From Acidobacteriota bacterium (lineage in GTDB: Bacteria; Acidobacteriota; Thermoanaerobaculia; Multivoradales; UBA5704), in assembly GCA_040005235.1 (NCBI GenBank), contig JBDTZG010000024.1, positions 10,021 through 74,020 of the forward strand: a stretch of 64,000 bases of DNA, in the 5' to 3' direction. The position numbers were made by a program, and so were the translations under genes. This document shows, in pieces, positions 826 through 56,557 of this stretch. The notes under the pieces are model-generated. The model was not told the DNA's origin. It saw nothing but the letters and a program-made list of their open reading frames with translations, and did no database searches. Every line of letters starts with the position of its first letter. Position 1 is the stretch's first letter.

Positions 826-1017
826 TGAGTGCGGCAGCCTTCAATCGCCGCTGAAAACCGAGGAATGGAAAAGGGTAACCGCACTCGATGCGACTGGCGC
901 ACGAGGTCGGTTTCCGACAGGCTAGCCAGCGCAGCCTGGAAGCTTGACGATTGGCGTTAATAGAGCGTAACATCTCTGAATCGAAGGTTGGAGGGCGTTA
1001 GTCCTTCAAGGAGGAGT

Positions 1018-1052
1018 TTGACGCTGAAGAGGGGCCGCTGGTATGGTAAAAT
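1018..1052 (+). promoter_or_regulatory. sigma70-like promoter candidate (TTGACG, 18-nt spacer, TATGGT) upstream of the Panacea-domain gene
   Basis: Near-consensus -35/-10 hexamers in an AT-richer stretch, about 120 bp upstream of the ATG at 1173. Confidence 0.4.
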
Positions 1053-1172
1053 GAGAAACCAAGCCTCCTAAACGTCATTGTTCCATCCCAACTTAGGTGG
1101 TGTTGTTTCAAGCGCTGGGTGAGCATAGGATGACTTCCCCGGCCTTCTCTCAGGGTAAAGGTGGAGAACATC

Positions 1173-1751
1173 ATGCCGATTCCAAATAGCCGGCATAAGC
1201 TAAAGCAGCTGATCCTCTATGTCGCCGCTAAAATGAAAGACGCTGATTCCTTCGGAGAAACCAAACTCAACAAGGTTCTGTTTCGGGCAGATATGGCGTG
1301 CTATAGGGATCTCGGCGAGAGCCTAACCGACTTCAAGTTTCAGAAAAACCATCAAGGGCCGACTCTGCGGGCCTTCCTTCCAATCACTCGGGAAATGACC
1401 GCCCAGGGGGTGCTTGCGTGGAACTCTCGGTTCGTAGGTTCTGTCAATGAGAACCGTCCGATAGCGCTGGCCGAGCCCGATCTGGAAGCTATTTCCCCTC
1501 AGGAGAGAGCCCTCATTGACGAAGAGATCGCAAGGGCGTGGATGTTAACTGGAGGACAGATGTCCGACGAGGAGCATGTCACGGCCGCGTGGTTTGCTCT
1601 ACGCCAAGGTGAGACGATTTCGCCGGAGCTTTGCTTTGTTGAAAACCCCCTAAATATTATTCCTCTCAGCGAGAAAGAGGAATCTCGTGCCAAAGAAGCC
1701 ATTGACCGATATCGCGCACGAACCGCAGTTTCTCCGGACCTTAGTGCATGA
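1173..1751 (+). CDS. Panacea-domain (DUF4065, SocA/GepA-like) putative antitoxin
   Basis: Motifs KLKQLILYVAAK...GETKLNKVLFRADMACYRD resemble the Panacea domain. An AAGGTGGAG RBS lies 8 nt before the ATG at 1173 (an alternative ATG is at 1161). GC is lower than in the flanking sequence. Confidence 0.6.
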   Translation: MPIPNSRHKLKQLILYVAAKMKDADSFGETKLNKVLFRADMACYRDLGESLTDFKFQKNHQGPTLRAFLPITREMTAQGVLAWNSRFVGSVNENRPIALAEPDLEAISPQERALIDEEIARAWMLTGGQMSDEEHVTAAWFALRQGETISPELCFVENPLNIIPLSEKEESRAKEAIDRYRARTAVSPDLSA

Positions 1752-2019
1752 ACCTGACTATCTGAAGGCGATAGAAGAGGTGTTCGAAACCGTTCAGAGG
1801 GCAGATGACGTTCTGGGTGGTCTGGAATTGTTCATTAGCCGTCGCGCCGAAATGGGAATGGCCTGCAAGGGATACCCGCCCGAGTTTTGTACATGGCTGT
1901 CGACCTTGTTACCGAATGATTGTCGTGTCCGAGTGCTCTACACCTACACGACCGAAGAGGCACACCTCCTCGACGCGTGGATGGTCTCAGGATCCGCGGA
2001 CGGGCCCTATTATCGCTAG
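1687..2019 (+). CDS. small ORF (110 aa, GTG start) overlapping the 3' end of the Panacea gene; candidate cognate toxin
   Basis: AGAGGAA RBS 5 nt upstream of the GTG; 65-nt out-of-frame overlap with the Panacea gene; no family recognised. Confidence 0.35.
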   Translation: MPKKPLTDIAHEPQFLRTLVHEPDYLKAIEEVFETVQRADDVLGGLELFISRRAEMGMACKGYPPEFCTWLSTLLPNDCRVRVLYTYTTEEAHLLDAWMVSGSADGPYYR

Positions 2020-2104
2020 GCAGCGGCGCCATGGGTGCCATGCGCCGGATCGCTCGAACCAGGAAGCCCCCCCGCCCCCCCCACCCTGCCTACCATTCCC
2101 CACC

Positions 2105-2506
2105 ATGCGAGCGAGCGATCTGCGGGAGCTGACGGCGGTCATGCGGCGCGCGGCCCAGGCATCCCGGGCGCGCAAGCACGATCTGGAAGCGGCGATGGGC
2201 GTGAGCCACGGCCGGATGGAGGATCTCTGGTCCGGAAACCTGGAGCTGAAGGTGCGCCATCTCGTGGGGTTGGCGGAGCTTCTGGAGGTTCCACCGGCGG
2301 AGATTCTCGCGGCGGGATGTCCCCACGCCCAAGCGGCGGAGCGCCGCCTGTCCGACTGGATCGGCCCGGTCGAGCCGCCATTCGCGGCGCGCCGCGCCGA
2401 ACAGGAGAAGGCCAACGCGGAGGCCGACGACGAGCGCCTACGCCGCGTGGTGCGCGAAGAGATCGCCGCCGCGTTGCCCGCCAGGGCGCGCGGCAAGGCG
2501 AAGTAG
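2105..2506 (+). CDS. XRE-family helix-turn-helix DNA-binding protein
   Basis: An HTH_3-like segment (HDLEAAMGVSHGRMEDLWSGNLELKVRHLVGLAELLEVPPAEIL) followed by a charged C-terminal tail. Confidence 0.6.
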   Translation: MRASDLRELTAVMRRAAQASRARKHDLEAAMGVSHGRMEDLWSGNLELKVRHLVGLAELLEVPPAEILAAGCPHAQAAERRLSDWIGPVEPPFAARRAEQEKANAEADDERLRRVVREEIAAALPARARGKAK

Positions 2507-2548
2507 CTCCCCGCAAGCCCCTACGCGCCGCGGTGAGATCGGACCAAC

Positions 2549-2730
2549 ATCGCGTCCGAATTTTGCGTGATGCGTCCGAATTCTGCGCAGTGCGTCCGAA
2601 GAGTCGACAGCCGGTCCGATTTCTGGGTCGGTGCGCTGAGGATAGCGCTTTTCAGCCGTCGGATTACGGCAATGCGTCCGATTTCGGCGAAATGCGTCCG
2701 ACAACTGCGGCGCGCGTCCGGTAAGTGTAT
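2549..2730. repeat. 20-bp tandem repeat array (about 7-9 units, core TGCGTCCGAW); iteron-like
   Basis: GCGTCCGA cores at 2552, 2572, 2592, 2612 (variant), 2674, 2694 and 2713 (variant), with exact 20-bp phasing. Confidence 0.8.
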
Positions 2731-2810
2731 TTTAAGTCCGAGGAACGGAGAAAGGCAGCGCCGAGGAGCACAATCGGCTCCCCGGCATCGCTGTCCTGTG
2801 CCAGCCGCCC

Positions 2811-5800
2811 CTACTCCCGAGGCGCCGGGATGCTCGGCACTACGACCTTCTTCCGCGGGTTCTTCGCCAGCTCGGCGAGCATGACCTCGATCGCCTTTTC
2901 GAGCGTGGGGTCTTGGCCCTTGGCGACCAGGTCGGGCCGGTCGATGACTTCGATGTCGGGGCTCACCCCTTCGTTTTCAACCGCCCATTTGCCGTCGGTG
3001 TCGAGGAAACGGAACTGGGGGACGAGGACGAATCCGCCGTCCATGAGCGGCGGGTTGCCCGAGAGGCCGATCAGTCCGCCCCAGGTGCGGGTGCCGATCA
3101 GCGGGCCGAGGCCGAGCTTCTTGAAGTAGTAGGGGAAGGCGTCGCCGCCCGAACCGGCGCTCCAGTTGATCAGGCACGCTTTCGGACCCGGATTGACGAA
3201 ATCGGGCGTGGTGCCCGGCTCTTCGCCGCGGCGCACCCAGTAGTTGAGCAGCGGGCGAGAGAGCAGCGCGATCATCGAGTCGGGGATAAAGCCTCCGCCG
3301 TTGTAGCGGTCGTCGACGATCAGCGCCTCTTTATCGACCTGCGGGTAGAAGTGCTTGTACAGCTCGCGATTTCCTTCGACCGCGGTGTTCGGCAGGTGGA
3401 TATAGCCGATCCTGCCGCCTGATGCCTTTTCCACCCGGCGGCGGCTGGCATCCACCCAGACGAGATAGCGGAGATTTTGCTCGCTGGTGATCGTCGAGAT
3501 CTTTTCTCCATGCGCTCCGTCGAGCGTCGGCTTTTTGTTGAGCAGCAGCGTGACGGTCCGGCCGCCTTTGTTCTCGAGCAGGCGGTAGAAGTTGTCGACC
3601 CCCTGGGTCGAGACTCCGTCGACGCTCAGGATCAGCTCGCCCTCTTCGGCGTGGACGCCCGGCTCGGTGAGCGGCGAGCGGAAGTCCTCGTGCCAGTTTT
3701 CACCCGGGAAGATCTGGGCGATGCGGAAATAGCCGGACGGATCGGCGGTGACCTCAGCTCCGATCAGGCCGCCATCCTTCCGCTCGACCGGCGACCAATC
3801 GGGCCGCCGTTCGACGTAGGCGTGACCCGAGCCGATTTCGGCCATGATCTCGTTCAACATCCAGTCGAGGTCGTTGCGGCTCGAAACGTAGGGCAGCAGC
3901 TCGCCGTAGCGCTTGATGATGGCGGGCCAATCGCGGCCGTGAAGGTTCGGGTCGTAGAACCAGTCGCGGACCAACCTTGCGGCATCGCGGTAGATCTGCG
4001 CCCACTCCTCGCGCGGGGAGCTGCGGACCTGCAGATGCGAGAGATCGAGCTTGGCGTCCGGCTTTTGGTCCGACGCGGCGTCGACGATTCCGAAATCGCC
4101 GCTCTGGGCGAACAGGATCTTCTTGCCGTCGGCCGACAGGGTGTAGTCGTTCACCAGGGCCAGGACGCTCTTTTCTCCGCGGGCTTCGAGCGAGTAGCGG
4201 AACAGCTGGGTGGTCCCCGGGTTGATCTGCTTCAAGTAGTAGAGGGCGTCGCTCGACGCCGAGAGCGAGCGGTAGGCGCCCGGATCGCCGGGGATCGCCC
4301 GAACCCGGCCGTCGAAACCGTCGAAATCGACCTGCACCTTGACCGGTTTCCCCGCTTCGGCCGCCTTCGCGGCACCGGTCGGCTCCTCATCGCTCTGCGG
4401 CGGGAACAGCGCGGGCTCGTCCTTGTCCAGGGCGCCGACGTAGACGCGGGTCGGATCGATGTAGAGGTACTGGGTCTCAAAGCCGCTGAAGGTGAGCGTG
4501 AAGTCGCGGTTCGACAGGAAGTAGAGATAGTGACCGCGCGGGTCCCAGACCGGTTCGAAGTCGTTGGCGCCGCTGTCGGTCAGCTGCCGGGCTTTGCCAT
4601 CTTCGAGCGAGTAAACCCAGAGGGAGCTTAGGTGATTCGCGCCGAGCTTCGGGTAGGCGAGGAACCGGCTGTCGGGCGACCAGCGATAGATTTCGAGCGT
4701 GCCGTAGCGGCTTGAATCGGCGTCGCGCACCTTGCCCGTTTCGACGTCGGCGATCCGCAGCCGGGCCTTCTTGTCGCCGAACGCGAGCTTTTTCGAGTCA
4801 GGCGACCAGACCGGCGCGAAGCGCCAGACGTCGCCGTCGGTCGTCACCCGCCGCTCGGGGCCGTTGCCGTCGCCCGGACGGACCCAAATTTCGTACTCGC
4901 CGGTACGGTCAGAGAGATAGGAGACCCACTTGCCGTCCGGCGACCAACTGGCCGACATTTCGCGGATTCCGGGGGTGGCGGTCAGGTTGCGGATCTCGCC
5001 TTTCTCGGCCGGCACGGTGAATAGATCGCCATGCGCGGTGAGCAAGGCGCGCTTGCCCGAAGGGGAAGGCACGGCGGCCTCCACGCTCTTCGATAGATCG
5101 ACGATCGACGGCATCGCCTCGGGGAAATCGCCCGAGACGTGGATCGGCACCTTCGCCGTCTCGCCCCGCTGCGGATCGAACAGCCAGATCCAGCCTCCCG
5201 CCTCGTAGACGACCGCGTCGGGGCCGCCGCTCGGCCATTCCACGTCCCAGTCGCCGTTCGTCACTTTGGCGGTCGCTTTGGAGCGCGTGTCGTAGGAGAA
5301 CAGGTTGAGCGTGTGGTCTTTGTCGGAGGCGTAGAAGATTTGATCGCCGATCCAAACCGGCCACATCTCGTTTTCCGGCGTCTTGGTGATCTGCTCGGCG
5401 CTGTCCTTGGCGAAGTCGTAGATCCAGACATCCGGCGTCCGGCCGCCCCGATGGCGCTTCCAGTTGCGGAACTCGCGGCCGATCGGGGTGTAAGCGAAAC
5501 GCGTTCCATCGGGTGACATCGACCCCGCGCCCCCTTCCGGCATGCGCATCGGCTCTTCCATGCCGCCCGCGGCGGGCACCGTGTAGGGCCGGCCGACCCG
5601 TTCGTCGTAGCCCGTCCGGTTGGCGCGGAAGACGATCTTCTTGCCGTCCGGGGTCCAATCGAGGATCACGTTGTCGTATCCGCCGCGCGCCGGAAGCTCC
5701 CCGATGTCGTTTCGGAACGTCAGCTGCTTGGGCTCGCCGCCGTCGGCCGAGACCACGTAGACCTGGCGGGTGCCGCTGTATTCACCCGAAAATGCCACCC

Positions 5801-6057
5801 ATTTGCCGTCGGGCGAGAGCTTGGGGAACAGCTCCTGGCCGGGGTGCGAGGTCAACCGCCGCGCTTCGCCGCCCGCGCGGGGGACGATCCAAACGTCGCC
5901 GGCATAGACGAAGACGATCCGGTCGCGCGAGACGTCCGGCGTATGGAGCATGCGGGTGCCGCCGTCGAGTTGAGCGAACGCGGAGGGCGGGGCGACGAAG
6001 GCAAACGCGGCGAGCAATGCGAACAGGCCGAGGAGCGGCGACGGGCGTTTCTTCACA
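2811..6057 (-). CDS. tricorn protease homologue (beta-propeller, PDZ and S41 peptidase domains), secreted
   Basis: About 1082 aa from a GTG start (VKKRPSPLLGLFALLAAFAFVAPPSAFA signal peptide). WD40-like propeller repeats, a PDZ region and C-terminal S41 peptidase motifs are present. The longer ORF to 6638 lacks coding character upstream of the signal peptide. Confidence 0.75.
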
Positions 6058-9205: not shown

Positions 9206-11038
9206 CTAAGGGACGACCGGAGGGGTCGTCGCCAGCGCCGAAAGCTCGGCAATCGAGCGAACGACCCCTCCGCGGACGACGTAACGCACCTGACGCAAAT
9301 TGCGGATCGCGGCGGTCGGGTCGGCGCCGACGATCAGCAGGTCGGCGAGCTTGCCCTTTTCGACCGTGCCGATTTCGGCGGAGCGCCCCAAGGCGCGGGC
9401 TCCCCCTCTTGTCGCGCTTATCAAAATGTCGCTTGGTGACATTCCCGCCGCCTGCATCGCTTCCATCTCTGCGTAAATCGACGGACCGTGGAGGGTGAGA
9501 GGGTTGCCCGCATCGGTGCCCATCGCGATCGTGATTCCGGCGGCGACCACTTTTTTCAAATTCTCCGCGCCGATCTTTTCCCGCGCGGCATTGCGCTCGC
9601 CGCGGACTTGGATCTGCTCGGCGGTGCGGCCCGCGGCGACCTTCGCCGTCTCCGCAACCCGGGCTCGGGTGACCGGATCGACACAGCCGTTCGGATCGTC
9701 GATCTCGGGTGCCTTGCCGCCAAGCGCCCCTTCGAACATCCGCTGGTAGCCGGCGCCCACGGTAAGCGTCGGGACGTAGACCACGTTCTTCTCCTTCGCG
9801 AGGAGAAGGAACTCGTCATCCACGGGCAGATCGGTCACGCTGTGGACGAGAACCGCCACTCCGAGGCGGAGCGACTCCTTTGCTTCTTTGAGACCGGTCG
9901 CATGAGCGATCAGGGGGAGCTTTTTCGCGGCGGCCTCTTCGGCCGCGGCACGGACCACCGCCGCCAGCTCTTCGAACGGGCGGCTGTCGTCGACGATGAA
10001 CCAAACCTTCACCGCGTGGCTCCCGCGCGCGGCGAGATAGCGCACCCCCTCGCGCGCGGCATCGGCGTCCTTCAAATAGATCATCTGCCGCTCGCCCGGC
10101 AGATTTAGCCAGTGGTCGATCGTGGTGAGCAGCGGTCCCGCGGCCCTCACCCGGGGGGCGAGCGTGTCGTCTTCCGTTTTGGCCGGCAGGCCGAGCGTCC
10201 AGGCGAAGCCGCCGACATCGAACACGGATGTCACGCCGGCGCAGAGCTGCGAGCGATAAAAGCGCTCCGGGTGGGCCGCGAGATCGGCGATCGTCTCGGC
10301 ATAGGTATGGCGATCGCGCACGTCGAGCGCATCGGGCCGGGCGTCCGCCCAGCCGGTCTGGGAAAAATGGACGTGGGCGTCGATCAATCCCGGCGTGAGC
10401 CACTGGCCTTTGAGGTCGAGCACGTCGACTCCAGAAGGCACCGGGCAGGCCGCGCGGGTCCCGGCGCAATCGATCTTCCCTTCGCGCAGGACGACCACCG
10501 AATCGGGAATCGGAGCCGCCCCGGTGCCGTCGATCAACGTCGCCCCGACCAGCGCCTTGGGGGCCGGCGGTACCCCGGGAAGTGCCTCGAACGCGGTCGA
10601 GACGCCGATCTTCCAGCCTTTCGGGGTCGCCAGGAAGAAGCGTTCGGAAATCCCCGACTGCTCGACCGCGCCATATCGCACTCTGTAGCGGTAGGTGCCG
10701 TAGACGAGGCCAGGCCGCACCGGAGTCAGGTGCATGTCCTCGGCTTCGATATGGTCGGGCCATCCGGTGCCCACGCCCTTGGCGAACTCAGCGAAACCGA
10801 CCGACATGCCGTCCGGCCCGGTGCGCGCGAAGCTCTCTTCCGGCAGATAGCAGGCCAGATAGGCGTCTTTGTCCTTCTTGCGGATCGCTTCGAGGTTCGC
10901 CTCGAACACCTTCTTTGCGCCCGCGAGATCGGCCGAAGAGCCGGCGGATGACTTTGCGGCGTTTGCAGGAATCGCGGGAAGCGCGAGGACTAAGCCCAAG
11001 ACGGCGAGCGAGACGCGACGACCTGCGGTGCGGTTCAT
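9206..11038 (-). CDS. amidohydrolase family protein with an N-terminal signal peptide and an extra N-terminal domain
   Basis: A metal-binding GLIDAHVHF motif, and C-terminal MGTDAGNP...HGPSIYAEMEAM typical of the amidohydrolase superfamily. Confidence 0.75.
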   Translation of the reverse strand: MNRTAGRRVSLAVLGLVLALPAIPANAAKSSAGSSADLAGAKKVFEANLEAIRKKDKDAYLACYLPEESFARTGPDGMSVGFAEFAKGVGTGWPDHIEAEDMHLTPVRPGLVYGTYRYRVRYGAVEQSGISERFFLATPKGWKIGVSTAFEALPGVPPAPKALVGATLIDGTGAAPIPDSVVVLREGKIDCAGTRAACPVPSGVDVLDLKGQWLTPGLIDAHVHFSQTGWADARPDALDVRDRHTYAETIADLAAHPERFYRSQLCAGVTSVFDVGGFAWTLGLPAKTEDDTLAPRVRAAGPLLTTIDHWLNLPGERQMIYLKDADAAREGVRYLAARGSHAVKVWFIVDDSRPFEELAAVVRAAAEEAAAKKLPLIAHATGLKEAKESLRLGVAVLVHSVTDLPVDDEFLLLAKEKNVVYVPTLTVGAGYQRMFEGALGGKAPEIDDPNGCVDPVTRARVAETAKVAAGRTAEQIQVRGERNAAREKIGAENLKKVVAAGITIAMGTDAGNPLTLHGPSIYAEMEAMQAAGMSPSDILISATRGGARALGRSAEIGTVEKGKLADLLIVGADPTAAIRNLRQVRYVVRGGVVRSIAELSALATTPPVVP

Positions 11039-11114
11039 GAGGCTCTCCCCAAAGTTTTGGGGGACTCTATCAACCGGCGGGGGTACCAGCGGGAGCGGCG
11101 ACCTTCGGAGGGGG

Positions 11115-11189
11115 TGGCTCCTCGGGAGGGATTTGAACCCCCAACATTTCGGTTAACAGCCGAACGCTCTACCATTGAGCTACCGAGGA
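11115..11189 (-). tRNA. tRNA-Asn (anticodon GTT)
   Basis: Reverse-complement reads TCCTCGGTAGCTCAATGGTAGAGCGTTCGGCTGTTAACCGAA...GGTTCAAATCCCTCCCGAGGAGCCA. A cloverleaf with a CTGTTAA anticodon loop and a 3' CCA. Confidence 0.9.
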
Positions 11190-11282
11190 ATATCGAAGCA
11201 ACTACGCGGTGCACCTGGGCGCGCCGGAGGGCGGATTCTAGGGGCGGTCGGAAGGGTTGTCAATTCTGGGGCGGACGAAACC

Positions 11283-12101
11283 CTACTCGATCAGCCCTTC
11301 GAGCGGAGAGGAGGCGTTCGCGTAGAGCTTCTTGGGGATTCGGCCGGCGTTGGCGGCGAGCCAGCCGGCTTCGACGCCGAGTTTCATCGCGAGCGCCATC
11401 CGGACCGGGTCTTGCGCTTCGGCGACCGCCGTGTTCATCAGGACGCCGTCCGCCCCCAACTCCATCGCTAGTGCCGCGTCGCTTGCGGTCCCCACTCCCG
11501 CATCGACGATCACCGGAACGTTCGCCTGCTCGACGATGATCTTCAGGTTCGCCCGGTTACGGATGCCCATCCCGGAGCCGATCGGCGCGCCGAGTGGCAT
11601 AACGGCCGCGGCGCCCAGCTCTTCCAGACGACGGCAGACGACCGGATCGTCGTTGGTGTAGGGCAAAACGATGAACCCTTCCGCGACCAGAATCTCGGTC
11701 GCCTTGAGCAGCTCGACGGTGTCCGGAAAGAGCGTCTTCTTGTCGCCGATTACTTCGAGCTTCACCCAGTTCCAGCCACCTAGCTCGCGCGCCAGGCGCG
11801 CCGTGCGCACCGCCTCATCGGCCGTGTAGCAGCCGGCGGTGTTGGGCAGCAAGAGATAGCGCTCCGGATCGATGTAGTCGATCAGCGAGCCTTTGCCCAG
11901 GGCATCCAAGTTCACGCGGCGAAGCGCCACGGTGACCACCTCGGTGCCCGAGGCGTCGAGCGCTGCCACCATCGAAGGGAAGCTCGGGTATTTCCCGGTG
12001 CCGAGGATCAGGCGGGAGCGGAAGGTCCGGTCGGCGATCGTGAGCGGCGCGACTTCCGAGGTTGAGGCAGGGGGCGAGATCATCGTTTCCGTGGCTTCCA
12101 T
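11283..12101 (-). CDS. thiG: thiazole synthase ThiG
   Basis: [17 protein letters not shown] and [18 protein letters not shown] motifs are characteristic of ThiG. Confidence 0.9.
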
Positions 12102-12136: not shown

Positions 12137-12640
12137 TTAGTGGGGCCCGCATGCGCGCGGCTCGACCGTAGACACGAATCTCACCGGCTTGTCGGAGCGC
12201 GCCAGGGCGACTACGTGGTGCGGCCGTTCAGCGACGATGCAGGTGCATTGGCCGCTCGCCGGCTGTTCGAGCAGATCGACCACCAGCTCGGCCGCGCGCT
12301 CTTCGACCCCGCGCACCGTGATGCCCGAAACGCAGCTTTGAGTGGGAAGTGCCACGGCGATCACCATCTTCCGGGCGAAATCGATCTGCGGCAGTTCTTC
12401 GCCCGGGCCGCTCCCCTTTTTCAGGCTGTCCCAGCCGGCGCGGAAGGCTGTCGCGTCGCGATAGACCTCTCGCATCTGCTCGCCGGCTTGGCCCGGCATC
12501 GAGCGCTGGTCGAGCGTTTCGAGGGCGATCGGGTCGGTGGCCGGGGCGGCTGAGCCAGGTTGCGGCCCGGCCGCGCAGGCTAGCGCGGCGAGGCCGAGAG
12601 CCAGGAGTCCGGTAGCTTTAGACATCGCAGACCTCCTCAA
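12137..12640 (-). CDS. secreted hypothetical protein
   Basis: Signal peptide [20 protein letters not shown]; 4-nt overlap with the panD stop. Confidence 0.5.
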
Positions 12641-13038
12641 AACGCCGCCGCCAACACCTCGACCGGCTCGGCGGTTTCGATTCCCAACGCCGCGACGTTG
12701 CGGTTCTTCTCGTCGACGAAAACGAGCTTGGGATGATGATCGCGCAGCTCCTCGGCCTCGTACTCGGCAAACGTCGCGAGAATCACCAGATCTCCCGCCT
12801 TCGCCTTGTGCGCCGCCGCTCCATTCAGACAGATCTCCCCCCGGCCCCGTTTGCCGGGGATCGCGTAGGTCGCAAGGCGCTCGCCGTTGGTGACGTTGTA
12901 GATCTCGATCCGCTCATGCTCCAGGATGTCGGCCGCTTCGAGCAACAGCGGGTCGATCGTCACCGAACCCTGGTAATGGAGATTCGCTTCGGTCACCGTC
13001 GCCCGGTGGATCTTCGATTTGAGCATCGTGCGCTTCAT
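12637..13038 (-). CDS. panD: aspartate 1-decarboxylase PanD
   Basis: [25 protein letters not shown]...GAAAH is a near-canonical PanD sequence, 133 aa. The longer ORF to 14205 is an out-of-frame artefact. Confidence 0.9.
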
Positions 13039-35672: not shown

Positions 35673-36865
35673 TCGTCTCCATCCGGGACAAAGCAACGCT
35701 CGCGGCGATTCGGCCCGCCAGAGTGGCGGCCTACTTGCAAGCCACGAACTGGAAACGGGTGGCGCTGGAGTCGGGGCGCTATTCGATCTGGGTGAATCCT
35801 TCGGCCCGTGAGCCCATCGAGCTACTCCTGCCGCTCGATTCAAAGTTCGACGATTTTCCGGAGAGGATGGCGGAACTGCTGCACGACCTTCAGAAGGAAG
35901 AGGAGCGGTCGCAGCTCGACATTCTCCGCGACATTGAGCTCAGCAGCTGTGACGTTTTTCGATTCAGGAAGGATCCGCGCTCCGGTTTCTTGGGCGCCAT
36001 CCAGCTCGAAGATGGCGTTCGGTTCGTCTCCTATGCTCGCGACCTGCTGCTTCTCGCCGCGTCCGCCGAGCACGATCCAGAGCGGGCCGGCATTGCGGGG
36101 CGAAGGTCGGATGACGTCACGTCGTTCATGTCTCAGGCGTTGCTGGGCCAGACCGAAATCTCGAGTTTTGTCGTCACGGCGCAAGTGCCCATTCCCGCGC
36201 GGTTGAACGAAGAGCTGTTCCCTGACGAGATCCCTTCGACTCCGGAGCCTTTCGAGCGGCGCGCCGGCGTTCGGTTGATGAATCTTCTTAGCCTCACCCG
36301 AGACGCAGCGCTCGAGGTCTCTCAAACCAACGATATCCAACCCTTCGTCGATGCTCTCGGCCAGGGCGCAACGGTCAACCTCTACAATACGCTGGTCGAT
36401 GCGCAGTCGATCGTTCCCGGGCAACCCTTGGAAGTCAACTGCACCTGGGCGCCGAGCCGACCGCTGTTTGGGAGCAGCCCGCCGAAGTCGGTCCTCTTCG
36501 AACCCGAGATCATTCTTCCCATCAGGGCCGCGGTGGAGGGTCTCCGGACGCGCGCCCCCAAAGAGGGAGAACGGATCTTTGGCTTCGTCGAGGTGCTACA
36601 GCAATCCGCCCAAGAGGTCCTGGTGGGAGAGTTGGCGGTAGCCACCGTGATCGAGGGAAAGCCGCGGAAAATCTATCTATTCCTTCAGCAGCCGGACTAC
36701 GGCAAGGCGATCGTCGCGTTCACAGAAAAACGACCGATCGAGATCACCGGAGATCTGCTCAAGGGCGGGAAGCGTTGGACTCTGCAGAACCCTCGGGACA
36801 TGGCTCTCTACCCCGCTGGAGGTGCTTCGTTGGAAGAAGAGGATAAGGAGAGCGGTCAGCAATAG
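35669..36865 (+). CDS. hypothetical protein (399 aa), middle gene of the candidate SIR2 operon
   Basis: Translationally coupled to the upstream gene; no recognisable motifs. Confidence 0.55.
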   Translation: MIVSIRDKATLAAIRPARVAAYLQATNWKRVALESGRYSIWVNPSAREPIELLLPLDSKFDDFPERMAELLHDLQKEEERSQLDILRDIELSSCDVFRFRKDPRSGFLGAIQLEDGVRFVSYARDLLLLAASAEHDPERAGIAGRRSDDVTSFMSQALLGQTEISSFVVTAQVPIPARLNEELFPDEIPSTPEPFERRAGVRLMNLLSLTRDAALEVSQTNDIQPFVDALGQGATVNLYNTLVDAQSIVPGQPLEVNCTWAPSRPLFGSSPPKSVLFEPEIILPIRAAVEGLRTRAPKEGERIFGFVEVLQQSAQEVLVGELAVATVIEGKPRKIYLFLQQPDYGKAIVAFTEKRPIEITGDLLKGGKRWTLQNPRDMALYPAGGASLEEEDKESGQQ

Positions 36866-36905
36866 CTGGTTAACTGCCGGACTTCGCTCGCCTGAGATCA
36901 GCGTC

Positions 36906-38270
36906 ATGAGCATTAATCCTCCCTCTCGCGAAGCTTTACTTGGTAACTTGGCTGATGCGGCACTGTTCGGCTCCTTTGGATTATTTGTAGGTACTGGGCT
37001 TTCACGTGCCCTCACCAAAGGCACGGCTCTTTCCTTCAAAGACTTACTGGTTTCTGTCTCCCGTCAGCTCGGCGTCGACTTGGACTTCGAGGACGTCGAT
37101 ATTGTTTGCGGAAAATCCTACCCACAGCTGGCGGAGGAGATCGCCCAGCTTCTCTCGCAGAGTAAGAACTGCTCATATTCTGAGGCGACTCTTGGTCTTA
37201 AGCGCGCAATCTGCCGCGCTTGCGACCTACAGGCGGACGCCAGTCTAACGACGCGTTACCGAGAAGCAATGGAGCTGATTCGGGTACAGTGGGTAATTAC
37301 CACCAATTATGATTTTATCTTAGAGGACTTGATTCCTAATTCCGTGTCGCTGCTGCCTAATGAACTACTAATTCCCAGGGTGGATTTCGTACCCATCTAC
37401 CATTTTCATGGTCACGTTCGTTCTGCCGCAAGTATTGTCGTCACGGATTCAGACTACATCCGCCTTCTCGCACCGACAGAGTACCGCCAGCTAAAGCTGA
37501 ATCTCTTAATGGCAGAGTCGAGCACTCTTATGCTGGGATACAGCCTTGGCGATATCAATGTTAAGACCGCCTTGGAGTGGTCCCGTGCCTTTGGAGCTGA
37601 GTGGGGACTGCGGGCGGAGGCGCATCAGTCACTTGTTGTACAGGCACTATATAAACCAGGAGCAACTCGTGAAACCGAGCCCTATTTTGGCCTGAATGGA
37701 GAGGTCATTATTGAAGTCGGAGACCTTTCGGTGATTTTGGGTGAAGTTTCAAAGGCCATCGAGACACGAAGGCTTGAATACACGGATCAAAAAGGGATGC
37801 TTGCTGATTGGATTAACGTGATTCCGGCCGGAAACCTGGCAGATGACGACGACCTTAGGATTGCTTTTCTGGATCTTCTTAGCCGGCTTCCGAGGCTTTA
37901 CGACTTGCCAGCGGTAATCCGGTACCTCGGCGCTGTATTGGATCCAATCTGGGAAAGGGCGCGCGCTGACTGCGGCTGGAGTCACTATGATCGATTCCTC
38001 TGTGTTCTGCTTGATGTTTTTAGAACCCTCCCGACGCGCCAGATTCACCCATCTCTGCTTTCTTACCTTGGAGATCAGCTCGATTATTTGTCCTGGTACA
38101 TAGACTCGGAAGGTAGAACGACACTTGGGACGTCTTTCGCTGCCTCACGTACTTGGCTGGGCAGAAAAGAAGAGATCCCCAAAGAGACTTGGAAAGCCTT
38201 AGTGGACTTTGCGACATATCGATCGCGCTACAGGCTGCTCAATCTTCTATCAGATCCAAGGGAGAGTTAG
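36906..38270 (+). CDS. SIR2-like (SIR2_2) domain protein with a roughly 250-aa C-terminal domain of unknown function
   Basis: Gly-rich FVGTGLS, a VITTNYDFILE motif and HFHGH catalytic-His context typical of defence-associated SIR2 NADases. GC about 48-50 percent versus about 68 percent background. Confidence 0.65.
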   Translation: MSINPPSREALLGNLADAALFGSFGLFVGTGLSRALTKGTALSFKDLLVSVSRQLGVDLDFEDVDIVCGKSYPQLAEEIAQLLSQSKNCSYSEATLGLKRAICRACDLQADASLTTRYREAMELIRVQWVITTNYDFILEDLIPNSVSLLPNELLIPRVDFVPIYHFHGHVRSAASIVVTDSDYIRLLAPTEYRQLKLNLLMAESSTLMLGYSLGDINVKTALEWSRAFGAEWGLRAEAHQSLVVQALYKPGATRETEPYFGLNGEVIIEVGDLSVILGEVSKAIETRRLEYTDQKGMLADWINVIPAGNLADDDDLRIAFLDLLSRLPRLYDLPAVIRYLGAVLDPIWERARADCGWSHYDRFLCVLLDVFRTLPTRQIHPSLLSYLGDQLDYLSWYIDSEGRTTLGTSFAASRTWLGRKEEIPKETWKALVDFATYRSRYRLLNLLSDPRES

Positions 38271-51787: not shown

Positions 51788-54700
51788 ATGCGCCGCACGA
51801 TCGTCTGTTTTTTCGCGCTCGCCACTCTGCTCTCGCTCCCATCGCTCGGCGCAAGTGCCGGAATCGATCCCGCCTTGCTCGCGGGACTCAAGGCGCGATC
51901 GATCGGTCCGGCGGCGATGAGCGGCCGGATCGCCGCGATCGATTCGGACCCACGCAATCCCTCGGTGATCTGGATCGGTTCCGCCACCGGCGGCGTCTGG
52001 AAATCCGAAAGCGCCGGCCTCACCTGGGAGCCGGTTTTCGACGATCAGCCGGTCGCCTCGATTGGCGCGGTGGCGATCGATCCGACGAACTCCGCGGTGG
52101 TCTGGGTGGGTACCGGCGAGGGCAACCCACGCAACAGCGTCTCGATCGGCGAAGGGCTGTTCAAAACCCTCGACAGCGGCAAGACCTGGAAGCGGATGGG
52201 GCTTGAGAAGACGGAGCACATCCATCGGATCGCGATCGACCCGCGCAACCCCCAAACCGCCTACGTGGCGGCCCTCGGCAAGATTTGGGGCGAGAACCCC
52301 GAGCGTGGCGTCTACAAGACGACCGACGGCGGCGCCACATGGCGGCGCGTGCTCTACGTCGACGAGCGCACCGGCGCCGCGGACCTGGTGATGGACCCGA
52401 GCAACCCGAACAAGCTGTACGCGGCGATGTGGGACTACCGGCGCTGGCCGTACAAATTTCGCTCCGGCGGCCCGGGCTCGGGGCTCTACGTGAGCAACGA
52501 CGGCGGCGAAAACTGGAAGCGGCTGACCGAGGACGACGGCCTGCCGAAAGGCGAGCTGGGCCGGATCGGTCTTGCGATCGCGCCCTCGAACCCGAAAATC
52601 GTCTACGCGCTGGTCGAGGCGAAGAAGCCGGCCCTGCTCCGATCGGACGACGGGGGCCTGACCTGGGATGCGGTCAACAGCGATCCGGACATCAACGAGC
52701 GGCCCTTCTATTTCGCCGACATCCGCGTCGATTCGGCCGATCCGAACCGCCTCTATCGGCTGGAGGTGTCGCTCGACGTCTCGACCGACGCGGGCAAGAC
52801 CTGGAAGACCTTGGCGAGCTCAAGCGCGGCGCATCCCGATCATCATGCGCTCTGGGTCGATCCGCTCGATCCGAACCACCTGATCGACGGCAACGACGGA
52901 GGCGTGTTCACCACTCGCGACCATGGGGACACCTGGTCGTTCGCGGGGGGCCTGCCGCTCTCTCAGCTCTACCACATAAGGTACGACAACGACCTGCCGT
53001 ACCACGTCTACGGCGGCTTGCAGGACAACGGCTCGTGGCGCGGCCCCTCCTCCGTCTGGGAGGGTGGCGATATCCGCAACCTGCATTGGCAGGAGGTCTG
53101 CTTCGGCGACGGTTTCGATACCGCCCCGGATCCGCGCGATTCCTCAAAAGGGTACGCGATGAGCCAAGGGGGCGCGCTGATTCGCTGGGATCTGAACACC
53201 GGCGAGCGCAAATCGATCCAACCGGTGCGCGAAAAGGATGGCCCTGAGCTGCGCTTCAACTGGAACTCCGCCCTCGGCCTCGATCCGTTCGACCCTGACA
53301 CGATCTATTACGGCAGCCAGTTCGTCCACAAATCGGTCGACCGAGGCGAGACCTGGACGGTGATCAGCCCCGATCTCACCACCAACCGCGCCGAGTGGCA
53401 GCCGAAGGAAACCGGCGGCGTGACCCAGGACGTGACGGGCGCCGAGAATTACACGACGCTGCTCGCCATCGAACCGAGCCCCAAGGCGAAGGACCTGCTC
53501 TGGGTGGGTTCGGACGACGGTCGCTTGCAGATCACGCGGAACGGCGGCAAGGATTGGACGAGTGTCGAAGGCCACGTCCCCGGCGTCCCGGCGAACACGT
53601 GGATTCCGCACATCCACGTTTCGACCTACGACCCGGCGACGGCGTTCGTGGTGTTCGACGACCACCGGCGCGCGAATTACGCCACTTACGTCTACCGGAC
53701 CGACGACTACGGCAAGACCTGGAAGAGCCTCGCGACGCCGGACCTTCGCGGCTACGCCCTCGCGATCACCCAAGATCCTGTCACCCCGAATCTGCTGTTC
53801 CTGGGCACCGAATTCGGCCTCTGGTTCTCGCTCGATGGCGGCGGCAAGTGGTATCCCTTCCGGCATGGCCTGCCTACCGTCTCGGTGATGGACCTCGCGA
53901 TCCAGCCCCGCGATCGCGACCTGCTGATCGCCACCCATGGCCGCGGCATCTACATCGTGGACGACATCGAATCGCTGCGAGAGCTGACCGCGGCGACGCT
54001 CGCCGAGCCGCTCCATCTGTTTCCGATCGCCGACGCGCAGCAGTTTTGGGCCTCTCGCTCGACCGGACCGCGGTTCCCGGGGGGCAATGACTACAAGGGA
54101 AAGAACAGGCCCTACGGCGCTGCGCTGACGTTCGTGGTCAACAGTCCCGACCTGCCTCATCCCGACGCGGCGATCGAGCGCGAGCGAAAGGAGGCCAAGA
54201 GAAAGGCCGATGTCGCAACTCCTGAGGCGCAGAAGCCGGGCGGCGGGAACACCCCGGGCACCGAGGGCGACAAGAAGACGAAGGTGCAGATTCAGGTCAG
54301 CAACGCCGCGGGAGAGCGGGTTCGCTCGTTCGAGCAGAGAGTCACGCAGGGGGTCAACCGGGTCGCCTGGGATCTCCGCGGCGACCCCTTCAAAGAGCCG
54401 CCGACCAAGAAACCGCCCTCACCCTTCCGCTCCGGCGGGCCGCAGGTCGTCCCAGGCACCTACACGGTCAAGATCACCTATGGCGACAAGTCCGCAGAAG
54501 GCCCCGTTCGCGTGGTGGGCGATCCGCGATTCCACCTGTCGGAGGCCGATCGGGCGGCAAACGACGCCGCGATGCACCGCGCCGGAGCGCTCAAAGAGCG
54601 CGTCTCCCTCGCCGTCGAACGGATCGTCCGGACGAAATCCGACCTCAAAACGATCCTCGATCGGGTCAACCGGCGCGACGACGAGCGCCGAAGGACCGAC

Positions 54701-55039
54701 GGAACGACCGAAAAATCGTCGGAGGTCAAGGCCCTGGAGAAGGCGGCAAAAGATCTCCGCCAAAAGTTGGAAGGCGTCGAGCGGAAGCTCTGGAAGTCCG
54801 ACGAGATCGTCGGCCGCCCCAAAGGCGACGACCTGGCCTCGGAGCTTGACGATCTACTCTCCCGACTCGGCAGCTCCTGGGACGCCCCGAACGCCACGCT
54901 GCTCATGGGGATCGAAGAGGAGGAGGAAAAAGCCGGCCCGATCTTCGCGGAACTGGACGACCTGCTCACGAAGGACGTCGCGGCCTTCCGCTCGATGGTT
55001 CCGGCGGGGGAACTGGAGTTGTTGGGTGGAGGGCGGTAA
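51788..55039 (+). CDS. secreted BNR/Asp-box repeat protein, paralogue of 47551-50679
   Basis: GGGAGG RBS before the ATG at 51788; signal peptide; Asp-box repeats (SESAGLTW, TLDSGKTW, TTDGGATW, SNDGGENW and others); 1083 aa. Confidence 0.75.
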   Translation: MRRTIVCFFALATLLSLPSLGASAGIDPALLAGLKARSIGPAAMSGRIAAIDSDPRNPSVIWIGSATGGVWKSESAGLTWEPVFDDQPVASIGAVAIDPTNSAVVWVGTGEGNPRNSVSIGEGLFKTLDSGKTWKRMGLEKTEHIHRIAIDPRNPQTAYVAALGKIWGENPERGVYKTTDGGATWRRVLYVDERTGAADLVMDPSNPNKLYAAMWDYRRWPYKFRSGGPGSGLYVSNDGGENWKRLTEDDGLPKGELGRIGLAIAPSNPKIVYALVEAKKPALLRSDDGGLTWDAVNSDPDINERPFYFADIRVDSADPNRLYRLEVSLDVSTDAGKTWKTLASSSAAHPDHHALWVDPLDPNHLIDGNDGGVFTTRDHGDTWSFAGGLPLSQLYHIRYDNDLPYHVYGGLQDNGSWRGPSSVWEGGDIRNLHWQEVCFGDGFDTAPDPRDSSKGYAMSQGGALIRWDLNTGERKSIQPVREKDGPELRFNWNSALGLDPFDPDTIYYGSQFVHKSVDRGETWTVISPDLTTNRAEWQPKETGGVTQDVTGAENYTTLLAIEPSPKAKDLLWVGSDDGRLQITRNGGKDWTSVEGHVPGVPANTWIPHIHVSTYDPATAFVVFDDHRRANYATYVYRTDDYGKTWKSLATPDLRGYALAITQDPVTPNLLFLGTEFGLWFSLDGGGKWYPFRHGLPTVSVMDLAIQPRDRDLLIATHGRGIYIVDDIESLRELTAATLAEPLHLFPIADAQQFWASRSTGPRFPGGNDYKGKNRPYGAALTFVVNSPDLPHPDAAIERERKEAKRKADVATPEAQKPGGGNTPGTEGDKKTKVQIQVSNAAGERVRSFEQRVTQGVNRVAWDLRGDPFKEPPTKKPPSPFRSGGPQVVPGTYTVKITYGDKSAEGPVRVVGDPRFHLSEADRAANDAAMHRAGALKERVSLAVERIVRTKSDLKTILDRVNRRDDERRRTDGTTEKSSEVKALEKAAKDLRQKLEGVERKLWKSDEIVGRPKGDDLASELDDLLSRLGSSWDAPNATLLMGIEEEEEKAGPIFAELDDLLTKDVAAFRSMVPAGELELLGGGR

Positions 55040-55191
55040 CGGCAGGGGAAGCTCACCGAACTCGTTCGGGAGGCCCCTTTCAGCCCACCACGGGGTACTT
55101 TTCCCTCCCCCAGGATCCGCCCGCCCGACAAGGAATAGCCGTACCTGAGCCCGCATAGCCGCCGCAGCCGATGAAAAGCGAGGAGGTGCGG

Positions 55192-55863
55192 TTATTTGCG
55201 AGTGGTACCGCGATTCTCCTCGCGGGTTGAATCGATAATCTGCATTGCGGCAGTGGTCAAGGCACCTCGGCTGAGTGTTCCGTCAAGTCTCTTGACGTTG
55301 GAGGCTATCGACGCCAGTGCCTCATAACGACTCCGAACCTCTCCAAAAAACTCGGACCCTTTTAATTCAATTACATCTCGGGCTCGCTGCCTTAATCGCT
55401 CCTCGCAGACACCTACCGGGGTATCAATCCACAAGATCAGGTCAGCAATCTCAACCGGCGTCGTCACAAAGTCAAAAACAAGCGCCAGGCGGTGGTCCAG
55501 CGCCGGTCCATAGGCTAGATTACCAAGATAAGATCGATCAACTAGAATCAGATCAAATTTCTTAAGCCTCGGTGAGATAACAATCCTGTTCGACCGCCTG
55601 CTTGCGACAGCCCACAGAAGCTCTCTCTCAATATCGTCAAGGTCGCAATTTGGACACTTACATACCCTGTCCAGGATCTCTGAAACAGTTAGTGTTCCGC
55701 CAGATAGCGTACTCGCGTAGTTATCCAAATCGCTACAAAACTCCTTTGTCGCCAAGACATTCAAATCAACTCTATAGGCAGAGTTTAGCGAATCGACCAA
55801 CGTCGTTTTTCCGCACCCATCTATTCCGTCTATCTTAACGACAACAGCCCTTGAGTTATCCAT
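55192..55863 (-). CDS. thymidylate-kinase-like (dNMP kinase family) P-loop kinase
   Basis: P-loop KIDGIDGCGKTT, DRSYLGNLAYG (the Tmk DR[YF]..S..AY motif) and a lid-like region; low GC (about 45-50 percent). Confidence 0.65.
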   Translation of the reverse strand: MDNSRAVVVKIDGIDGCGKTTLVDSLNSAYRVDLNVLATKEFCSDLDNYASTLSGGTLTVSEILDRVCKCPNCDLDDIERELLWAVASRRSNRIVISPRLKKFDLILVDRSYLGNLAYGPALDHRLALVFDFVTTPVEIADLILWIDTPVGVCEERLRQRARDVIELKGSEFFGEVRSRYEALASIASNVKRLDGTLSRGALTTAAMQIIDSTREENRGTTRK

Positions 55864-55879
55864 CCTCGTGGTTACCCGC

Positions 55880-56557
55880 TTAGCTTTCAGGCACCGGGGG
55901 AGTGAAGTCGAGCTCGTACTGTCCGATCTCCGGAATTTCTTGCAGCTCCCTTGGTATCATATGGCGAAACTTTTTAGCTTTTGTCGCGTAAAGTTGCCGA
56001 ATATTAGGATTACTGGTATCTATAACAAGCGGCTCGGTGTTCACAACTATTCCGGCGCCAGATACACCACTGATCTTATCCGGATTATTAGTCATCAGGC
56101 GAACCGCTTCAACGCCCTTCTTCTTCAGGAAATCTCCGATTCGAGAGAAATCTCGCCCCTCGGGGGCAACACCAATCTGCATGCGGGAGTCATAGGTATC
56201 AATGCCTTGTGTTTCTAGGTCTGTAGCTTTGACTTTAGCTGAAAGGCCCGCTCCCCGACCATCAATTCTGAGATATAGTAGTATACCATGTTTCTCAGCT
56301 TTAAGCCTACCCAGAGCCATCTCTAATTGTTGAGCGCAATCGCACAACTCACTGCCAAATATTTCTCCAAATACGCATTCGGAGTGGATCCGCACCAACG
56401 GCTCCAATTGACTGAACGGTGCTCCAAAATATACCGCTAGATCGCCATCTACAGCTTCAGTTAGCGACACTGATTCGACGGTAATATTCCCCCACTTTTT
56501 CGTCTTGAACGAAGCCTGCGAATGCAGAAAAGTCCTCAGGTCCATGACCGTTTCCAT
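55880..56557 (-). CDS. GTP cyclohydrolase II (RibA) homologue outside a riboflavin operon
   Basis: RIHSECVFGEIFGSELCDCAQQLEMAL (zinc-ligand Cys triad), GILLYLRIDGRGAGL, and GIDTYD...RDF...VRLMTNNPDK all align by eye with E. coli RibA. Confidence 0.75.
   Translation of the reverse strand: METVMDLRTFLHSQASFKTKKWGNITVESVSLTEAVDGDLAVYFGAPFSQLEPLVRIHSECVFGEIFGSELCDCAQQLEMALGRLKAEKHGILLYLRIDGRGAGLSAKVKATDLETQGIDTYDSRMQIGVAPEGRDFSRIGDFLKKKGVEAVRLMTNNPDKISGVSGAGIVVNTEPLVIDTSNPNIRQLYATKAKKFRHMIPRELQEIPEIGQYELDFTPPVPES

Follow-up and report, generated by a model that had tools for sequence, protein, structure and literature searches.

Panacea-domain toxin-antitoxin systems and the locus under study

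SocAB of Caulobacter crescentus is the founding pair of the SocA/Panacea type, in which SocB is an inhibitor of the replication clamp unrelated to the RelE/ParE toxins and SocA is a ClpXP adaptor. The PanAT toxin-antitoxin (TA) systems were defined by Kurata et al. 2022 (PMC8832971), who published 88 T clusters of the partner toxins (PanT); ParE is among the CDD matches of these partners, and clusters T14 and T28 of their Dataset S1 have HHpred matches to HigB-2, YoeB, ParE, RelE and YafQ and are marked there as untested. PanA proteins can neutralise their partners via the Panacea core or via elements appended to it (Ernits et al. 2023, PMC10440598). Here we describe a locus of this kind in a 64,000-nucleotide stretch of contig JBDTZG010000024.1 from an uncultured member of the Thermoanaerobaculia (Acidobacteriota), hereafter the window, where a Panacea-domain gene, panA, is followed by an overlapping open reading frame (ORF) for a 110-aa protein. 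The cassette is an ordinary though poorly annotated PanAT system with a predicted ParE-like toxin, recently inserted beside an unrelated unit that consists of a gene for a probable helix-turn-helix (HTH) protein and a repeat array. An initial annotation, made from the sequence of the window, had listed all of these features in a single block; they are all present, but they fall into two unrelated units.

The cassette resembles the described PanAT systems in that the Panacea gene comes first and is followed within 100 nt by a small partner gene, in the conservation of this pair across many genomes and contexts, in being mobile and compositionally foreign, and in having a partner of predicted RelE/ParE type, a kind of partner that had already been catalogued. 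It differs from them in that the partner family has no match in Pfam or NCBIfam and is rarely called by gene finders, and in that the partners of the close clade overlap panA by 50-95 nt out of frame, whereas a short gap or an overlap of 1-8 nt is usual. With SocAB it shares the SocA_Panacea domain of the antitoxin, but nothing in the cassette indicates the SocAB mechanism. Given that Kurata et al. 2022 had already catalogued the pairing of Panacea proteins with RelE/ParE-like partners, the cassette is of a known kind and brings in no new principle. What it adds is a partner family that is invisible to profile libraries, a long and conserved out-of-frame overlap, and a clean acquisition event.

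A segment absent from the closest relative

Close relatives were found by scanning species-representative genomes with the Tricorn-like protease encoded to the right of the cassette. The best matches of this protein come from metagenome-assembled genomes of Thermoanaerobaculia, and the closest relative, L093, has a Tricorn protein that is 96% identical. Positions 1-628 of the window align with L093 at 92.9% identity and positions 2071-3200 at 92.6% (blastn). Between these, L093 holds 134 bp of unrelated sequence where the window has the 1454 bp at 632-2085, the junctions being read off the alignment. The window and L093 hence form a filled-site/empty-site pair. The features of the region are as follows:

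8-634, + strand: 3' end of the gene for a 227-aa protein, function unknown
632-2085, no strand: insertion or replacement block absent from L093 (blastn against L093)
648-921, + strand: 5' remnant of a TAT-signal M20 peptidase gene (79% nucleotide identity to the start of an L108 gene)
670-825, + strand: 51-aa ORF with a TAT signal (TAT_signal, E 1.7e-5)
944-973, + strand: probable cassette promoter, TTGACG-N18-TAACAT (consensus scan and comparison with L196 and L012)
1018-1047, + strand: second sigma70-like site, TTGACG-N18-TATGGT, with an upstream TG (consensus scan)
1173-1751, + strand: panA, 192 aa, Panacea-domain antitoxin (PF13274)
1687-2019, + strand: panT-like 110-aa ORF with a GTG start (predicted RelE/ParE fold; family conserved beside PanA)
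2105-2506, + strand: probable HTH gene, 133 aa, resident (sub-threshold HTH profiles)
2537-2753, + strand or unstranded: resident 20-bp repeat array
2811-6056, - strand: Tricorn-like protease gene

Composition sets the cassette apart from its surroundings. The GC content of the 632-2085 block is 0.558, against 0.63-0.68 in the flanks, and the low-GC stretch proper is restricted to about 920-2030, where GC is 0.53 against a window mean of 0.636 (sd 0.042, z = -2.45). The contrast is sharper in GC at third codon positions (GC3), which is 0.56 in panA and 0.64 in the 110-aa ORF, whereas the four flanking genes, including the HTH gene, have values of 0.81-0.86. The initial annotation had extended the low-GC block over 960-2810. 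This extent holds for the PanAT part, but not for the HTH gene, with a GC of 0.72, or for the stretch 2071-2810 that contains the array, with a GC of 0.68. Its view that a lower-GC module with a promoter of its own had been inserted is borne out for the cassette by the empty site in L093, by the low GC3 and by the promoter that is common to L196 and L012 (see below). Taken together, we consider it probable that 632-2085 is a horizontally acquired segment bearing a self-contained type II TA cassette of the PanAT type.

The left end of the insert has a different character. Positions 648-921 are 79% identical at the nucleotide level to the first 275 bp of a 500-aa gene of L108, which carries the Peptidase_M20, M20_dimer and TAT_signal domains and is sited elsewhere in that genome, between a YfiH-like gene and the gene for the 227-aa protein. 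In the window this remnant spans the 51-aa ORF 670-825 and runs on out of frame in the ORF 829-960, so that the pseudogene (648-960) is broken by a stop codon and a frame change. It has native composition and is a scrap of a gene, not cassette DNA. The M20 peptidase gene has no match in the retrieved part of L093. The cassette may thus have been brought in by recombination along with a bit of DNA from a relative, or it may have landed in, and destroyed, a copy of the peptidase gene. There are no terminal inverted or direct repeats and no target duplication at 632 and 2085, and the 10 kb examined in each direction are filled by ordinary housekeeping genes and include no integrase, rep gene, partition gene or tRNA. 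The foreign composition of the cassette favours a gain in the lineage of the window. What counts on the other side is that three or four genomes were compared, and with these a loss of the cassette in L093 keeps a formal, if small, claim.

The Panacea protein and a partner gene with a hidden start

The initial annotation had assigned the product of 1173-1751 to the Panacea (DUF4065) domain, and a search with the SocA_Panacea profile (PF13274) agrees, with a match above the cut-off (E 3.8e-7, 31.5 bits against a cut-off of 25.7) that covers positions 1-112 of the 113 in the profile. A PF13274 match is precomputed for 23 of 25 PanA homologues, and the identical protein in NCBI, MEP7011246.1, is named 'MAG: type II toxin-antitoxin system antitoxin SocA domain-containing protein'. 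The AlphaFold model of PanA has a pLDDT of 81.2, with residues 5-145 forming a confident core. Beyond it, a linker (residues 158-165) falls below 50 and leads to a C-terminal helix (residues 167-185) at about 50-58, whose sequence EEERAxAAIERYxART is kept across the clade. As modelled, the C-terminus looks like a tethered segment that would fold upon its partner.

The ORF 1687-2019 overlaps panA by 65 nt in a different frame. To assess it we scanned the six-frame translations of 79 distinct PanA-clade loci with a profile of its family. A homologue lies directly downstream of PanA on the same strand in 50 of the 65 loci with at least 300 nt of downstream sequence, and most of the other 15 have a look-alike ORF at this position. 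The overlapping GTG-start ORF of the initial annotation is therefore a genuine gene, and the two-gene conservation that characterises PanAT systems is seen here with flanking genes that differ from locus to locus. Homologues of the 110-aa ORF and of PanA share contigs, and the neighbours of the pair are NYN and YfhO genes in L001, an IS21 element in L007, a peptidase M1 gene and an alpha-2-macroglobulin-like gene in L008, a MazE/PIN pair in L011, and in L196 a large ORF with an N6-methyltransferase-like TNPPW motif that was read by eye and has no database match. Neither the HTH gene nor the GTCCG array of the window is found at these five loci. By these sequence comparisons PanA and its partner are a conserved, mobile two-gene unit.

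The partner has largely escaped annotation. A profile search of 1.84 billion cluster representatives retrieved just 26 proteins of the family; gene callers skip the ORF in L007, L008 and L011, and the window copy is not called by PGAP, an exact look-up finding it in Logan and not in NCBI. Where gene callers start the gene, they use the GTG at 1744, which gives a product of 91 aa and an overlap of 8 nt. Upstream of this GTG, however, lie R17, which is at least 90% conserved across the family, and the first strand of the structural model (residues 18-21). Close relatives have an ATG at positions equivalent to the upstream start, giving overlaps of 50-95 nt with panA. Codon-position statistics provide further evidence. 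When ten close loci are aligned by codon, third positions of panA diverge 2.0 times as much as first and second positions in codons 1-160 and 0.97 times as much in codons 172-192, and within codons 183-192 the third positions are invariant while the first positions vary (about 0.7). This pattern implies that selection acts here in the frame of the partner. The short form starting at 1744 was accordingly rejected, for it would lose R17 and strand beta1 and would leave the selection upstream and the ATGs of the relatives without a counterpart. Both the alignments and the model point to a true start at or near 1687, and a Shine-Dalgarno-like AGAGGAA is present at 1676-1682, its end 5 nt ahead of the GTG at 1687. 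This element can pair with AUUCCUCU at 1659-1666 in an 8-bp hairpin.

The closest PanAT homologue (L196:2416-2703, 78.7% nucleotide identity) shows a shift of the toxin frame near its 3' end, with the conserved C-terminus LLDAWVVSGSSDGPYYR in another frame, either through an assembly error or as a decaying gene.

A predicted RelE/ParE fold for the partner

An AlphaFold2 model of the 110-aa protein from a 14-sequence alignment has a pLDDT of 83.7 and a pTM of 0.73. Its topology is beta-alpha-alpha-beta-beta-beta (strand 18-21, helices 23-35 and 39-56, strands 68-71, 79-87 and 91-101), and this predicted arrangement of an N-terminal strand, a two-helix hairpin and a three-stranded antiparallel sheet is that of the RelE/ParE superfamily. 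Consistent with this, the top 25 Foldseek matches in the PDB are almost all toxins of this superfamily, with probabilities of 0.87-1.0 and TM scores of up to 0.69; for ParE, ParE2, YafQ, HigB2 and RelE the probability is about 1.0 and TM 0.5-0.69. The best are Mesorhizobium ParE (5ceg_B) and ParE2 (the 5cw7 chains, TM up to 0.69), and further ones are YafQ, HP0894, HigB2, the RelE-like domain of Cami1, RelE and M. tuberculosis ParE2. When 23 members of the family were scanned singly, PF05016 matched four of them weakly (best E 0.0016), YafQ_toxin matched one weakly and ParE-like_toxin matched one. Hence the family would appear to be a divergent branch of the RelE/ParE superfamily and not a new type of toxin. 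The initial annotation had recognised no known toxin in this ORF and had suggested a new partner type. The structure prediction and the PF05016 matches of four of the 23 relatives speak against that suggestion, and partners of this kind had in any case been listed before.

Across the family R17, R38, A39, L46, R52, E55 and V83 are nearly invariant, and apart from V83, on the third strand, they map to strand beta1 and the helical hairpin, with no residue of catalytic type on the sheet. The C-terminal strands are variable, and the R.R.LY strand is not conserved family-wide. As no catalytic His/Arg/Tyr set is conserved on the sheet, our assignment, based on the model, leans towards a ParE-like, non-nuclease protein and away from a RelE-like one.

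As in the classical type II modules ParDE, PaaA2-ParE2 (5ceg, 5cw7), RelBE, DinJ-YafQ and HigBA, the antitoxin gene comes first, and the predicted fold and the size of the toxin are alike; the flexible C-terminal helix of PanA could wrap the toxin in the manner of the C-termini of ParD, PaaA2 and RelB. The antitoxin, on the other hand, has a Panacea domain and not a ribbon-helix-helix, Phd or HTH domain, and the 110-aa protein has no detectable sequence similarity to ParE or RelE, nor are the catalytic residues of RelE, YafQ and HigB conserved in it.

Promoter, leader and proposed mechanism

A consensus scan found two sigma70-like sites where 0.5 were expected. Each agrees with the consensus at 9 of 12 positions, and the near-consensus promoter of the initial annotation was therefore an overstatement. 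The site at 944-973 recurs upstream of PanA in L196 and L012 with the same architecture and flanking bases (TTGACG-nTTGGCG...GCGTAAnAT), and given these shared hexamers and flanks it is probably the cassette's own promoter. The site at 1018-1047 was found by the consensus scan and has no comparative support.

In L007 and L014-L018 a motif YTTACGCCC(C) lies 15-40 nt upstream of the PanA starts in leaders that are otherwise unalignable, and the leader in the window is without it. In the window, some 130 additional nt separate the shared promoter from panA, and a weak terminator-like hairpin (1083-1100) lies within them.

The steps of the mechanism that we propose are inferred. The single promoter at 944-973 would drive a bicistronic mRNA of panA and the 110-aa gene, encoding respectively a Panacea antitoxin with a tethered, conditionally ordered C-terminal helix and a toxin of the predicted RelE/ParE fold. 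PanA would most likely neutralise the toxin by direct binding, probably via this helix, which would act as ParD, PaaA2 and RelB do on their partners. Synthesis of the toxin is probably coupled to, and limited by, translation of the antitoxin, a reasonable inference from the sequence because the ribosome-binding site and the start of the toxin lie in the codons for the PanA helix and the Shine-Dalgarno-like element can form a hairpin. Upon loss of PanA, the freed toxin would arrest growth by gyrase poisoning or mRNA cleavage.

Several observations weigh against this reconstruction. The 110-aa protein has no match in Pfam (at E <= 1), NCBIfam, PADLOC or PHROG, and the family profile run against PDB sequences retrieves no ParE or RelE chain at E <= 10, only noise. 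With no match in a sequence library, the superfamily assignment depends on a model from 14 aligned sequences, and the Foldseek E-values for it are 2e-3 to 5e-2. The 121-nt segment with the Shine-Dalgarno hairpin folds no better than shuffled sequence (z = 0.04), and the hairpin is not evidently conserved. Finally, PanA has no recognisable DNA-binding domain, which leaves autoregulation of the cassette unexplained.

Two other accounts of the 110-aa protein have to be set beside the ParE-like one. The same cassette could encode a ribosome-dependent mRNA endonuclease of the RelE type, with a different target from that of a gyrase poison. YafQ, HigB2, RelE and HP0894 are also among the Foldseek matches, at probabilities of 0.98-1.0, one relative has the weak YafQ_toxin match, and the close clade possesses an RVRVLY strand with basic residues and a tyrosine. 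Since the best structural matches are nonetheless ParE proteins (5ceg_B and the ParE2 chains of 5cw7), the near-invariant residues are not of catalytic type and that strand is unconserved in the wider family, we regard a RelE-type activity as possible but on balance unlikely. Under a more radical alternative the Panacea protein would stand alone and the ORF would supply it with a non-toxic accessory or adaptor, or the roles of toxin and antitoxin would be swapped. Toxicity and neutralisation are indeed predictions, and the Panacea domain may be a sensor and not always a neutraliser (Ernits et al. 2023, PMC10440598). However, the RelE/ParE fold is known almost only from toxins, and the antitoxin-first order, the tight conservation of the pair and its mobility all fit PanAT systems, which makes a non-toxic or reversed arrangement very improbable.

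The resident HTH gene and the GTCCG array

The HTH gene and the array belong to the conserved right flank and thus lie outside the insertion. L093, where the insertion is missing, has both in collinear order at 92.6% identity, and L097 has them too. On this comparative evidence they are a separate, older resident unit of the chromosome. The assignment of the 2105-2506 product rests on matches below the cut-offs at residues 8-68, to HTH_26 (19.1 bits against 22) and to HTH_31 (16.5 bits against 27, E 0.011). Its orthologue in L093 scores slightly higher (20.3 and 18.1 bits, respectively), and PHROG regulators match at E 0.02-0.03. The protein has no sequence match in the PDB, and no relatives were found in searches of genome_contigs and viral_contigs. 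While 'probable HTH' is a fair description, the XRE family named in the initial annotation is not established by such matches. The protein is 92% identical in L093 and L097, and the GC3 of the gene is 0.86.

The phased 20-bp array of the initial annotation is indeed there, its eight units forming two four-unit blocks at a period of exactly 20 bp, with the consensus nnGCGTCCGAnnnnTGnnnn. Units of the GCGTCCGA type start at 2552, 2572, 2592 and 2612 and again at 2674, 2694, 2714 and 2734, and five of the seven exact GCGTCCGA octamers in the whole 64 kb fall in the array, in phase. A GTCCG-like inverted copy precedes each block (2539-2544 and 2658-2664). The array directly follows the HTH gene in the window (4+4 units), in L093 (4+4) and in L097 (3+5), and GTCCG is invariant in all 24 units of the three genomes (2.0 bits at five positions), followed ten bases further by a weaker TG, the other positions varying freely. 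A short core and a phase that are conserved while whole units come and go fit a multi-site protein-binding array. We hence consider the unit most likely, as judged from its sequence, to be a DNA-binding protein beside an array of binding sites that all point to the same side of the helix. The obvious candidate for the ligand is the HTH protein encoded next to it, for which co-occurrence in three genomes offers weak evidence. Being placed between convergent genes, the array is no obvious operator for either of them, and by analogy its nearest counterparts may be centromere-like or excisionase-like filament sites.

Arrays of the iteron or centromere type include plasmid iterons, parC of R1 and tubC of pBtoxis. 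Like these, the window array consists of short direct repeats in helical phase, in two blocks, beside a gene for a small putative DNA-binding protein, and its period falls in the range of the tandem 17-22 bp direct repeats of iteron origins. Unlike them, it is accompanied by no initiator, ParA, ParM or TubZ gene, DnaA box or AT-rich unwinding element, and it stands between convergent chromosomal genes, at the same chromosomal site in L093 and L097. In particular, no rep-like gene occurs in the 20 kb around the array and no DnaA box, allowing up to one mismatch, within 50 kb of it.

These observations bear on the initial proposal that promoter, PanA, ORF, HTH gene and array are one module, the remnant of a plasmid or integrative element with its iterons and regulator. 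The resemblance of 20-bp direct repeats in two blocks to iterons or to type II/III centromeres would suit such an origin, as would a viral contig of IMG/VR, L183, with at least seven direct and three inverted GCGTCCGA octamers. But L183 was found by searching with the same octamer, in a viral-contig scan whose 23 hits are about the number expected by chance and among which L183 alone has a real multi-copy array. More decisively, the HTH gene and array occur in L093 without the PanAT segment, and in L097; they have a native GC3 (0.86, where PanAT has 0.56-0.64); no PanAT locus elsewhere has them; and the 10 kb to either side hold no rep, integrase, par gene or tRNA, with the DnaA box likewise absent. 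The single-module proposal is scarcely tenable in the face of this. It might alternatively be asked whether the array consists of DNA-binding sites at all, or is a recent tandem duplication or a structured or protein-sponging RNA, for instance the 3' untranslated region of the HTH or Tricorn mRNA. The genes on its two sides converge, so that neither promoter region transcribes it, every unit has GGA on the minus strand, and in L145 the corresponding position behind the Tricorn gene is taken up by a highly regular tandem array of 21-bp units. Against this, neither strand of the array gives a better fold than shuffled sequence (z = -1.4 and -1.5), the array matches no Rfam family, and just the 5-nt core and the phase are kept in the three genomes while the rest has diverged, as fits a protein-recognition core and not helices or a young duplication. 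An RNA or duplication origin therefore appears improbable, and binding sites for a protein remain our preferred explanation of the array.

Some further observations come from other contigs. In L183 (5570-5730; IMG/VR 3300035459_000162) the octamers are irregularly spaced and lie inside the 3' end of a 978-aa ORF that does not resemble the HTH protein and matches nothing in Pfam; motifs like those of primases (GNGVHVYW) and like Walker A can be recognised in it by eye, and the identity of the octamers may be coincidental. In L145, a distant relative whose Tricorn protein is 56% identical, 12+8 near-identical 21-bp units CCGTCCGCACGTGTGTTCGGC, which also contain GTCCG and may or may not be related to those of the window, follow the Tricorn terminator (5136-5570), and the next genes are DUF433 and MGMT-like ones, with no HTH gene. 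The HTH gene of L108 is reduced to a 130-bp remnant, and ahead of Tricorn this genome has tandem paralogous genes (10113-10589 and 10751-11224) for cysteine-rich secreted proteins of 157-158 aa with no Pfam match. L097 (DASYKS010000015) has a PIN/VapC-like gene (PF01850, E 2.3e-6) with an upstream 67-aa ORF between the array and the Tricorn gene (11312-11919), and an Unstab_antitox ORF (PF09720, E 5.5e-14) at 12394-12948 immediately before the HTH gene, at the very place that PanAT occupies in the window. With different TA cassettes beside the unit in the window and in L097, both of its sides have the look of a TA hot spot.

Implications and other low-GC islands

The locus provides a well-delimited PanAT acquisition in an uncultured acidobacterial lineage, for which both the empty and the filled site are on hand, and a previously unannotated partner family gains a model-based assignment to the RelE/ParE superfamily. 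It also illustrates that annotation-based TA surveys miss toxins which start 50-95 nt inside the antitoxin gene, and that the GTG start chosen by gene callers drops a conserved strand. A bolder proposal, to which we give little credence, would see in the family a distinct and mostly unannotated clade of toxins with the RelE/ParE fold, tied firmly to Panacea antitoxins by the long out-of-frame overlap. With the initiation region inside the codons of the neutralising helix, synthesis of the toxin would depend strictly on translation of the antitoxin, and if this were true, many seemingly orphan PanA genes in the databases would have hidden toxins. Separately, the HTH gene with the GTCCG array would be an undescribed chromosomal landing pad for TA cassettes.

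Two further low-GC islands are seen in the window. One, at 36100-37900, where GC falls to 0.51, encodes a 482-aa SIR2_2-domain protein (36822-38270, E 4.4e-16) behind a 403-aa ORF that matches no Pfam family, and could be an anti-phage defence island. The other, at 54650-56550, with a minimum of 0.47 near 55550, carries thymidylate-kinase-like, GTP cyclohydrolase II and NTPase_1/AAA genes on the minus strand.

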